DNA of 64,000 nt, taken from assembly GCA_903920435.1 (NCBI GenBank), contig CAIXMB010000038.1:13563-77562 (forward strand). Reading direction: 5' to 3'. The position numbers and the translations under genes were made by a program. This document shows, piece after piece, positions 2,018 to 64,000 of this stretch (position 1 is the stretch's first letter; the number at the start of each line of letters is the position of its first letter). Origin of the DNA: an uncultured Actinomycetes bacterium. Lineage in GTDB: Bacteria; Actinomycetota; Actinomycetes; Actinomycetales; Microbacteriaceae. The notes under the pieces are model-generated. The model was not told the origin of the DNA and searched no databases. It saw only the letters and a list, made by a program, of their open reading frames with translations.

Positions 2018-3766
<1,749 letters not shown>

Positions 3767-62051: not shown

Positions 62052-62146
62052 GGGTCGCTTTCAACGAGAAATCGTTGCGCAAGAGGACCCGGGCATGATC
62101 GGAGGAGCCCAGACGCGGGAAGCGCCTTACCTCCCACGATAGTCGC

Positions 62147-62680
62147 TCACTTCGTGGCGAACACCACCACCCGCGATGAGTGCTGTCGTAGACGAACTGC
62201 AGCGCCGTCCCGAGCCCCGAGAAGGAATTCGAGTCGGGCGCCATGTCCTGGGTCGAGTACACGTTCAAGCACACACTGTCGCGGCCACCGCTGAGGTAGC
62301 TGAAGCCGCCCCTCGTCACGACCGACGTCATGCCGTGGAACTCGTCGAACCCGTCGACTGTGCCGCCCTCGGCCTCTGTCACCGTGTAGACCTCCGGGAT
62401 GTCGAATGACGAGTCGATCGAGAGTCGCGCGACCTGCTGGGCACCCGCCCCCAGGGGATGGGATTGGACTCTCTCCACCACTACCAACGAGGTGATCACG
62501 ACCGCGGCCACGGCTGCGACACTCAGCACGATAACGACGGTGGAGCGACGGATGCGGCTCGCCCGCGTGAGCGACCAGCGCGCCGCGCGCGGGCGACTCG
62601 TCGGGGGTCTCCTCGAGCAGCACGGTGGTGGTCGGCAGCTGTGGAGAGTCTGCACGAGCACCCTCCTGTCTCCGTACCAT
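62147..62680 (-). pseudogene. Membrane-anchored protein gene with two apparent compensating frameshifts
   Basis: Coding-like N-terminus (..LLEETPDESP) and C-terminus (VVVFATK*) in one frame; TM plus ectodomain (STVVIVLSV..FDEFHG..CLNVY..LQFVYDSTH) in another; shifts near 62590 and 62172. Confidence 0.6.
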
Positions 62681-62709
62681 ACATGCATGGCCAGAATAGT
62701 GTGGTGCTC

Positions 62710-62856
62710 ATGAGTCAACTCACGGGCGCCGTCATCATCCTGCTCATCGCCATCCCGGTAGCGCTCGCGTGCTACGTCGGTGCTGCCCTGGCCCGGGAGG
62801 CGCGCACGATCCGTGAGTCGGCGAGGGCCAGCCGACGGAAACGAGGAGACACATGA
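62710..62856 (+). CDS. 48-aa single-TM small protein
   Basis: MSQLTGAVIILLIAIPVALACYVGAALAREARTIRESARASRRKRGDT*; TAGTGT 7 nt upstream; ATGA overlap with bacteriocin gene. Confidence 0.65.
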   Translation: MSQLTGAVIILLIAIPVALACYVGAALAREARTIRESARASRRKRGDT

Positions 62857-63152
62857 AAGCAGTGAAGAAGGTCGGCATCGTTGCCGCGATCACCGCAGCG
62901 CTTGCGCTCGTACAGGTCGGGGTCGCCGCGGCGACCACGGTGCAGGTGGGCGGCGGCCTGTGGTCGTACGGCACGACCACCGACGTCGTGTACTCGAACT
63001 ACCACCACGGCGGCGCGTACCACAGCGCGACCGCCTGCAACCAGGCGGCGTTCGACAAGTGCCACCAGTCGGCGGCCGCTCCGGGGGCGTGGGCGAACGC
63101 CTCCAACGTGCGGACGCTGTGGGGCAACACCGCCTACTGGAACACCTACTAG
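62853..63152 (+). CDS. Lactococcin 972-family bacteriocin precursor
   Basis: Sec signal ending VAAA; mature GGGLWSYG..VYSNYHH..YHSAT..GAWANAS..GNTAYWN; SD GAGGAG. Confidence 0.88.
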   Translation: MKAVKKVGIVAAITAALALVQVGVAAATTVQVGGGLWSYGTTTDVVYSNYHHGGAYHSATACNQAAFDKCHQSAAAPGAWANASNVRTLWGNTAYWNTY

Positions 63153-63162
63153 GCGCCCGGCA

Positions 63163-63738
63163 ATGCGCGCAGCACTGGTGCTCGGCATCGTGGCGCTCAT
63201 CGCGGCACCGCTTGCCGGATGCAGCGCTGCCGCGCCGAGTTCACCGCAGGAAGGCCCGGGGGCCGCACCGGCCGGCAGGTTCACCGGTCCCTGGGCCGAC
63301 CTCTTCGAGAGCACGTACGCGCAGACCACCTCCGACGACGAGCTGCGCGCCCTCGAGGATGGCGAGATCACCGCAGAGGAGTACGCGTACTTCCAGGGCC
63401 GCATCGTCGAGTGCCTCGCGGGCCTCGGCATCGACGGCCACTTCAACCCCGACGGGTCGCTCGACTACTCGAACGCGAAAGACGTCAGCCAGGAGGCGAT
63501 CCGCGACTGCAACCTCGACAACGGCATCCGCATCCTGACCCTCCATGACGCGATCGTGCGCAACCCCACCCATCGGGACGAGACCGACATCATGCTCGAG
63601 TGCCTCCAGCGCGAAGGGGTGGTGGGTGCCGGCTACACGCGCGCCGACCTCGAGAACGGGGTCGATCTCGATGCGCTCGGCGACGACCCCGCGTTCGCCG
63701 GATGCGCGGCCGACCCGCTCGGGTACGGGGTCGACTGA
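63163..63738 (+). CDS. Lipoprotein of unknown function
   Basis: Lipobox LAGC; four further Cys (VECL, RDCN, LECL, AGCA); 10 nt after bacteriocin stop. Confidence 0.85.
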   Translation: MRAALVLGIVALIAAPLAGCSAAAPSSPQEGPGAAPAGRFTGPWADLFESTYAQTTSDDELRALEDGEITAEEYAYFQGRIVECLAGLGIDGHFNPDGSLDYSNAKDVSQEAIRDCNLDNGIRILTLHDAIVRNPTHRDETDIMLECLQREGVVGAGYTRADLENGVDLDALGDDPAFAGCAADPLGYGVD

Positions 63739-64000
63739 ATGCGGCACTGGGCGGTGATCGCACTCGTCGGCCTTATCGCGGGCGCGGCACTCGGCTGTGC
63801 CGTCTTCGTCGCGCTCGTGCCGGGCGAGGGGCCCGCGTCGCTCGCGAGCGCCGGAGAACTCGACATGGTCGAGCCGTCGACCATGGAGTACGACGATGCG
63901 CGGGAGGTCACGATCACCCTCACGCTCGAGACGGGGTCGGGGGTGCGCAGCCCGCGGGCGGGCATCCTGACCGCGACCAGCTGCGTACCGGGACAGGCAG
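63739..64000 (+). CDS. Membrane-anchored adaptor-like protein (possibly peptidoglycan-binding / MFP-like), 3'-truncated by window
   Basis: ATG abuts previous stop; N-terminal TM then YDDAREVTITL...RSPRAGILTATSCVPG. Confidence 0.6.
   Translation, partial: MRHWAVIALVGLIAGAALGCAVFVALVPGEGPASLASAGELDMVEPSTMEYDDAREVTITLTLETGSGVRSPRAGILTATSCVPGQA

Follow-up and report, generated by a model that had tools for sequence, protein, structure and literature searches.

The distal end of a 64,000-nucleotide (nt) stretch of contig CAIXMB010000038.1, from an uncultured, Salinibacterium-like bacterium of the Microbacteriaceae (Actinomycetes), carries the first genes of a predicted bacteriocin operon. The whole stretch of 64,000 nt is called the window here. 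Three open reading frames (ORF1 to ORF3) of the operon were seen inside it, encoding a precursor of the lactococcin 972 (Lcn972) family (62853-63152), a lipoprotein (63163-63738) and a membrane-anchored adaptor (from 63739 onward), respectively. The genes 3' of base 64000 were read from contig C38 of the same genome (G000:C38), where an ATP-binding cassette (ABC) ATPase and a permease follow. The three genes of the window lie on the forward strand. We consider that this five-gene cassette probably encodes a secreted antibacterial peptide together with its own, lipoprotein-based means of self-protection.

The precursor gene encodes 99 amino acids (aa), starts with ATG and is preceded by GGAG 7 nt upstream. 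An earlier note on this DNA, made from the sequence alone, had pointed to an Lcn972-like ORF at 62853 with a Sec signal, cleavage at residue 27 and a mature peptide of about 72 aa. The ORF is present as described and contains all the motifs listed there (GGLWSYG, VYSNYHH, HSAT, GAW and GNTAYW). The search proposed in the note, with the Pfam hidden Markov model PF09683 (Lactococcin_972), was run and returned a full-model match (54.9 bits, E 1.3e-14, positions 1-62 of 62) above the gathering score of 22 bits. NCBIfam TIGR01653 is matched with 40.7 bits (cut-off 32.1 bits), so that both curated cut-offs are exceeded, and Lcn972 itself (PDB 2LGN) is aligned by phmmer at E 2.4e-5. The predicted product of 62853-63152 is a genuine member of the lactococcin-972 family.

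The signal peptide and its cleavage site were predicted from hydrophobicity and from the alignment of relatives. The Sec-type signal comprises residues 1-27 (MKAVKKVGIVAAITAALALVQVGVAAA; 62853-62933), with a KK n-region, a hydrophobic core within residues 2-30 and A-A-A at positions 25-27. Relatives keep A-x-A at -3/-1, directly before the TTVxVGGG start of the domain. Because of the A-A-A at 25-27 and because A-L-A precedes the same TTV(N/Q)VGGG start in the Salinibacterium orthologue, cleavage after residue 27 is well supported as the probable site, in line with the earlier note. The remaining part (62934-63152, including the stop codon) encodes the mature peptide of 72 aa, with a calculated mass of 7.7 kDa and an isoelectric point (pI) of 6.8, thus near neutral. 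The precursor contains no double-glycine leader, and scans of the operon products against Pfam and NCBIfam revealed no genes for modification enzymes or a leader peptidase. Close relatives (from a Salinibacterium sp. metagenome-assembled genome (MAG) and from Labedella endophytica) are already called ‘lactococcin 972 family bacteriocin’ by NCBI and JGI; the peptide is therefore of a known, automatically annotated kind and ordinary for its family.

Two Cys residues of the precursor, C61 and C69, are separated by seven residues (Cys61-x7-Cys69) and had been proposed in the note to form a disulfide loop. In an alignment of 33 family sequences, Lcn972 included, 27 have a Cys at the column after (S/A)TA, and 26 of these have a second Cys 3-8 residues further on. 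The only exception is L039, a locus of the type with seven transmembrane (TM) segments, in which the partner Cys lies 20 residues downstream. Sequences without the first Cys, among them Lcn972, have no Cys in that loop. In the alignment with 2LGN, the Cys-bearing segment takes the place of the VVNNNTGRQGKD stretch of Lcn972. The co-occurrence of the two Cys across relatives supports a disulfide-closed loop in the predicted peptide.

The lipoprotein gene (63163-63738, 191 aa) begins 10 nt after the stop codon of the peptide gene. Its lipobox reads LAGC, with a Cys (Cys20) that is invariant in the alignments of the family, as are four further Cys (84, 116, 147 and 181). The mature domain has a pI of about 4 and a net charge of about -23 and is mostly alpha-helical. 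No family in Pfam or NCBIfam includes the protein. An exhaustive profile search nevertheless collected 1,674 clusters at E <= 1e-3 and 1,053 clusters at E <= 1e-10, and these relatives are labelled ‘hypothetical protein’ in every source. Structures were predicted with AF2 for the lipoprotein and the adaptor and were compared to the PDB with Foldseek. The lipoprotein model reaches an overall pLDDT of 83, with values above 90 for residues 41-170, and it finds no fold match in the PDB (best E 1.4; query-normalised TM-score (TMq) <=0.23; top target-normalised TM-score 0.49 over 55 columns). The comparison thus shows no relation to the LanI immunity lipoproteins or to any solved fold. A role as disulfide-forming helper is ruled out, since the protein has no CxxC and also accompanies Cys-free peptides (L032, L034). 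We propose that it may be the peptide-specific immunity or binding partner.

The stop codon of the lipoprotein gene (TGA, 63736-63738) directly abuts the ATG of the third gene (63739). The window contains the first 87 codons of this gene (63739-64000), which encodes 337 aa in total and continues to C38:78314 (window-equivalent 64752). The product has an N-terminal TM helix, a lipoyl and a beta-barrel domain, and a small helical PG_binding_1-like insert that replaces the alpha-hairpin. Its AF2 model (pLDDT 83.7) gives 40 Foldseek hits in the PDB at E <= 1e-3, all of them periplasmic adaptors with a probability of 0.95-1.00, including ZneB, TMexC, CusB, MexA, AcrA, BesA and MacA (E 1e-8 to 1e-3). 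The TM-scores are only 0.25-0.40, owing to the domain arrangement and the replaced hairpin. A conserved block (PLWR...GD.G.DV.AL..EL..LG) corresponds to the PG_binding_1 domain of distant relatives. Distant sequence relatives carry PF01471, and one of them is named efflux adaptor. Four Cys are invariant. The predicted structure thus places ORF3 in the membrane-fusion protein fold.

The ABC ATPase (C38:78311-78908) and the FtsX/MacB-like permease (346 aa, C38:78908-79948) are located outside the window and immediately after the adaptor, with overlaps of adaptor stop and ATPase start (GTGA) and of ancestral ATPase stop and permease start (TGATG). The earlier note had described a Cys-bearing lipoprotein at 63163 and an abutting TM-anchored, adaptor-like ORF at 63739, and had predicted ABC ATPase and permease genes beyond 64000. 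The conserved lipobox, the N-terminal TM helix with the periplasmic-adaptor fold, and the two genes right after the adaptor bear out all of these proposals. The ATPase scores 72.1 bits against TIGR03608 (L_ocin_972_ABC), which is below the cut-off of 254.85 bits and behind many generic ABC models. The permease has TM segments at 14-42, 231-251, about 269-300 and 310-335, a 1+3 topology as in FtsX and MacB. Four out of nine permease orthologues weakly match PF02687 (best E 4.9e-4) and one matches MacB_PCD (E 0.036); a permease profile retrieved nothing from the PDB. None of the downstream products hits the 7-TM protein family DUF1430/TIGR01654. The same genome encodes a paralogous module at G000:C189:63546-65823 (+) with the same gene order, in which a lipoprotein-like ORF scores 19 bits (weak), the adaptor 69 bits and the ABC ATPase 125 bits. 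This module is distant and represents the only other candidate pump of its kind in the genome.

The ATPase gene of the window strain is interrupted. Walker A (GPSGAGKS), the signature (LSGGE) and Walker B (LLLVDEP) share one frame up to DEPTAQLDRR, while the H-loop strand (ATIVVIATHD...AGVP-stop) is found in the +1 frame. The G+C content at third codon positions (GC3) of this tail is 0.93 in the +1 frame versus 0.61 in the original frame, and all orthologues of the ATPase are single-frame. The cause is a 14-nt deletion after ...GACCGGCGC (G000:C38:78787-78788, window-equivalent about 65225, 4788/4789 in L003), the sole indel in 3.9 kb that are 98.4% identical to the sister strains. Five sister strains (L065, L066, L067, L069 and L070) lack the deletion, the ATPase of the sister strains being intact and 202-203 aa long. 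The deletion is common to three assemblies, namely the window genome and two independent ENA metagenome assemblies (L044, L045), and since it is found in all three, it is a real, recent strain-level lesion. An assembly error is ruled out by the same junction in the two independent metagenome assemblies and by the clean 14-nt gap relative to the sisters. Programmed +1 frameshifting is deemed unlikely, as the deletion is missing in the sisters and neither an in-frame stop nor a known slippery context is present. The deletion joins an ATPase that lacks its H-loop in frame to the permease, giving a predicted product of 545 aa. With the H-loop out of frame and a truncated ATPase fused to the permease, the fusion is most likely inactive and the pump not working in this strain.

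This raises the possibility that the cassette of the window strain is a decaying remnant, in which the deletion marks lost selection and the peptide is not made or is irrelevant. The frameshifting deletion is indeed fixed in three assemblies while the sisters are intact, decay or loss of the pump recurs in the closest relatives of the peptide, and the locus is accessory, PF09683 being missing from both genomes of the same genus that were sampled. On the other hand, the ORFs of peptide, lipoprotein, adaptor and permease are intact and keep all family-invariant residues, and no second indel accompanies the deletion in the 3.9 kb compared. The GC3 of 0.93 in the out-of-frame tail indicates that the lesion is very recent and tells little about the other genes. 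We consider a mere remnant somewhat unlikely.

The distribution of the cassette was surveyed in 201 Microbacteriaceae genomes from 101 genera, on which the lipoprotein profile was run as well and cross-tabulated with the PF09683 hits. PF09683 was found in 23 of the 201 genomes and in 14 of the 101 genera (none of the two same-genus genomes). Eighteen of the 29 PF09683 genes of the family directly adjoin a lipoprotein gene. The full five-gene cassette is present in at least nine other genomes according to tblastn synteny (L030, L032, L034, L035, L037, L038, L040, L041 and L046). The remaining PF09683 loci encode a membrane protein of 670-780 aa and an ATPase, one with a weak DUF1430 hit. Beyond the Microbacteriaceae, the lipoprotein profile finds 2 of about 385 genomes of the class. 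The earlier note had called the operon atypical, which holds with respect to the archetype of Lactococcus but not within the Microbacteriaceae, where this layout is that of the majority (the 18 genes above).

Several loci have a reduced set of genes. One genus (g37) contains the peptide and lipoprotein pair without the pump (L026, L029 and L033), and L025 lacks the ATPase and has a permease gene interrupted by a stop codon. With the window strain, this makes three independent lineages in which the lipoprotein persists but the pump has been lost or is in decay. Among the partners in the cassette, the lipoprotein is the one that never leaves the side of the peptide gene, with the pump apparently dispensable in cis. 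The number of lipoprotein genes also varies: two copies occur in L032, three in L040 and ten in genome G021 (on small contigs), in tandem or dispersed, with pump and adaptor as a single copy. A decayed pair was observed in L036 (G027:C1, about 2261357-2262175), where the PF09683 gene is broken by an in-frame stop and the lipoprotein gene lies in two pieces.

The module of lipoprotein, adaptor, ATPase and permease occurs without an Lcn972 gene in ten loci, and isolated lipoprotein genes without a pump were found in four (L048, L049, L059 and L063). Three loci encode a second family of small peptides with a Sec signal ahead of the lipoprotein, at L053:5612-5935 (-), L055:4661-4975 (+) and L057:4691-4975 (+). 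Its mature part is about 60 aa long, with four Cys in the pattern AxC[WY]...C...H...WS...C[WY]xN[VI], and it matches nothing in Pfam or NCBIfam. In L047, L050, L052, L054, L061, L062 and L064, no peptide gene was detected with the module, in which the lipoprotein often occurs in tandem; housekeeping genes abut the lipoprotein in L047, L050 and L054. These peptide-free modules are possibly orphan resistance modules.

The fixed order of the module, with the lipoprotein just upstream of adaptor, ATPase and permease in the ten loci without an Lcn972 gene, would also be found if the lipoprotein were a fourth subunit of a wall-anchored MacB-type pump, acting in substrate capture or assembly. The pump would then be the protecting element and the peptide genes interchangeable cargo. 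The genomes with a minimal pair, moreover, still hold an adaptor of the same family elsewhere. Against a pump subunit stand the intact pairs of peptide and lipoprotein without an adjacent pump (L026, L029, L033), the persistence of the pair beside a decaying pump in L025 and in the window strain, and the four isolated lipoprotein genes. The tandem expansion of the lipoprotein beside a single-copy pump is less usual for a stoichiometric subunit than for a factor of specificity or immunity. We therefore regard a subunit role as unlikely.

We favor the view, with a probability of roughly 0.6, that the cassette encodes a secreted antibacterial peptide and a non-canonical, lipoprotein-based self-protection system in one chromosomal operon. 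It is supported by the lipoprotein that is kept without the pump, by its copy expansion, by the stand-alone modules and by the second peptide family in the same slot. Taken together, the patterns are as would be expected if a toxin gene were accompanied by a specific immunity protein and by a generic, shareable pump, and if non-producers carried orphan resistance modules. The mature 72-aa peptide, closed by one disulfide, would be released and act on the envelope of related bacteria and, by analogy with Lcn972, would bind lipid II. The lipoprotein, anchored to the membrane on its outer side, would bind or shield against the cognate peptide, in a role like that of LanI but with an unrelated fold. 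Adaptor, ATPase and permease, like YknXYZ or Spr0693-0695, would clear the peptide from the membrane surface in an ATP-driven manner, and this unit may be of a kind so generic that it could be shared or be provided in trans. Dual immunity has a precedent in other bacteriocins (PMC4055356). In the window strain, with its pump most likely inactive, protection would rest on the lipoprotein, if the peptide is made.

A number of points weigh against this view. The three minimal loci L026, L029 and L033 belong to one genus and represent one event. An adaptor of the same family is encoded elsewhere in every other genome whose cassette is minimal or decayed, from which it follows that a pump could act in trans; the proposal that the lipoprotein alone suffices for immunity is weakened by the same finding. 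About half of the strong lipoprotein hits adjoin no PF09683 gene, and while such hits fit resistance modules, they fit a role as pump subunit equally well. The lipoproteins have a pI of about 4-5 and most partner peptides a pI of about 9; the mature peptide of the window, with its pI of 6.8, makes this argument of charge complementarity weak for its own pair. For the permease of the window strain, neither Pfam nor NCBIfam gives a significant family match. Finally, to our knowledge, antibacterial activity has been shown for no actinobacterial member of the family.

The last point would leave room for an Lcn972-fold protein that is a self-directed envelope or signalling factor, which the module exports, positions or senses. 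Actinobacterial members are unassayed, the mature peptide is near neutral whereas Lcn972 is cationic, and the peptidoglycan-binding-like insert of the adaptor suggests a wall-associated function. However, the characterised members are antibacterial, namely Lcn972 (PMC4055356, PMC9964109), mediterrocin (PMC12345188) and Lmo2776 (PMC6854461). The patchy distribution among the genomes surveyed (23/201), the stand-alone modules and the tandem lipoproteins are usual signatures of toxin and immunity genes, and the peptide has a Sec signal of its own, for which no dedicated exporter is needed. A self-directed function thus seems very improbable to us.

Starting from an antibacterial peptide with lipoprotein-based protection, a broader proposal can be made, though we hold it as tentative and short of probable. 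The family of acidic lipoproteins with four Cys would constitute a new class of bacteriocin immunity proteins, peptide-specific binders tethered to the surface. Each would cooperate with a generic, wall-anchored pump of the MacB type or pass its ligand on to it. Actinobacteria would reuse this platform behind unrelated secreted toxins, of the Lcn972 type on the one hand and of the 4-Cys type (L053, L055, L057) on the other.

The region upstream of the precursor gene contains further features. A candidate 48-aa protein with a single TM segment and a basic tail is encoded at 62710-62856 (+), its stop codon overlapping the ATG of the bacteriocin gene (ATGA). About 20 nt upstream of this ORF, an inverted repeat CCAT-N6-ATGG (CCATACATGCATGG, 62677-62690, +) represents a candidate operator or promoter element, and the repeat is also found at the equivalent position in the locus of the Salinibacterium MAG (L046). 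The 48-aa ORF has a GC3 of 0.77, compared to 0.89-0.93 for its neighbours. In the Salinibacterium MAG, it is in frame and without indels (56% over 32 aa, with 11/7/14 differences at the three codon positions). L025 also has a comparable small TM ORF upstream, and a gene is called at the same position (3315-3461) in the sister NCBI assembly L068. No counterpart was found in the more distant cassettes. As judged from these comparisons, the 48-aa ORF is a plausible but unproven first gene of the operon. A scan for sigma-70 promoters and intrinsic terminators over the operon gave zero sites, which is expected and thus uninformative at this G+C content.

An ORF on the opposite strand (62137-62718, -; L003 1700-2281) encodes a TM helix and has a coding-like GC3 of 0.81 (peak 0.9). 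It matches no protein family, relatives were found neither in other cassettes nor in the rest of the genome, and it extends into low-GC3 sequence overlapping an ANTAR gene. Gene callers placed genes of 121-265 aa at this position in sister assemblies. The adjacent GAF-ANTAR pair is missing in some sister strains (L065, L067, L068 and L071), which marks the region around the ORF as variable.

Lcn972 is, as far as we know, one of few unmodified bacteriocins that bind lipid II, and the mechanism of immunity is still unclear even in Lactococcus. Here, most Lcn972-type genes of one actinobacterial family use a wholly different set of partners, the constant element of which is a lipoprotein family of more than 1,000 clusters without a name, a domain or a structural relative. 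If the lipoprotein is indeed a specific binder, it would give a handle on the recognition of the Lcn972 fold and a marker for further unannotated secreted toxins in Actinobacteria. The natural variants, which include pairs of peptide and lipoprotein, peptide-free modules and nearly identical strains whose ATPase either works or does not, point to simple experiments.

The classical arrangement of partners, a large membrane protein and an ATPase, is known from lcn972-orf2-orf3 on pBL1 of L. lactis and from mdcH/mdcI of mediterrocin in Mediterraneibacter gnavus, where an ABC ATPase is among the genes downstream, to which a role in immunity and not in export is ascribed (PMC4055356, PMC12345188). 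Lipid II binding with septum inhibition is known for Lcn972 only (PMC4055356, PMC9964109). The window locus shares with these loci the PF09683/TIGR01653 precursor with a Sec signal, a mature peptide of about 66-90 aa and its place as first gene of the operon. The partners differ: a DUF1430/TIGR01654 protein of roughly 650 aa with 7 TM segments and a TIGR03608 ATPase are encoded there, whereas here we find a lipoprotein, a membrane-fusion adaptor, a 346-aa permease with 4 TM segments and an ATPase with 72 bits against TIGR03608. The peptide itself has the Cys pair and is near neutral, whereas Lcn972 is without the pair and cationic.

The pump resembles YknWXYZ of Bacillus and Spr0693-0694-0695 of S. 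pneumoniae, in which, likewise where there is no outer membrane, a membrane-fusion adaptor is combined with an ABC ATPase encoded separately and with a permease of the FtsX/MacB type that has 4 TM segments and a large extracytoplasmic domain; the permease of our cassette probably belongs to this type, as its topology suggests. YknW itself is a polytopic membrane protein. YknWXYZ protects against the SDP toxin (PMC4887032) and Spr0693-0695 is involved in resistance to antimicrobial peptides (PMC5768738). In contrast to both, the adaptor described here has a PG_binding_1-like helical domain in place of the alpha-hairpin, and the permease is too divergent for a significant match to Pfam FtsX. The upstream lipoprotein has no counterpart in either system, and the module is tied to genes of secreted peptides.

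For the combination of lipoprotein and transporter, the nearest parallel is LanI with LanFEG (NisI with NisFEG). LanI lipoproteins confer peptide-specific protection, to which the LanFEG transporter adds, and structures of NisI and SpaI are available in the PDB. As in our cassette, where the peptide would bind lipid II, a surface lipoprotein is found in the producer of a lipid II-binding peptide and is paired with an ABC transporter (cited in PMC4055356). The two are unrelated in sequence and fold, and the pump here is of the MacB type with an adaptor and not of the LanFEG (ABC-2) type, which makes the analogy a functional one only.

Actinobacterial PF09683 genes have been obtained before by genome mining, in papers on Brevibacterium and Frigoribacterium genomes, the Lcn972-type clusters of the latter having been reported by antiSMASH (PMC12823222). 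Compared by description only, these papers list clusters, without the lipoprotein, the fold of the adaptor, the stand-alone modules or a function. The partner cassette is an undescribed variant, centred on a large, unnamed lipoprotein family.

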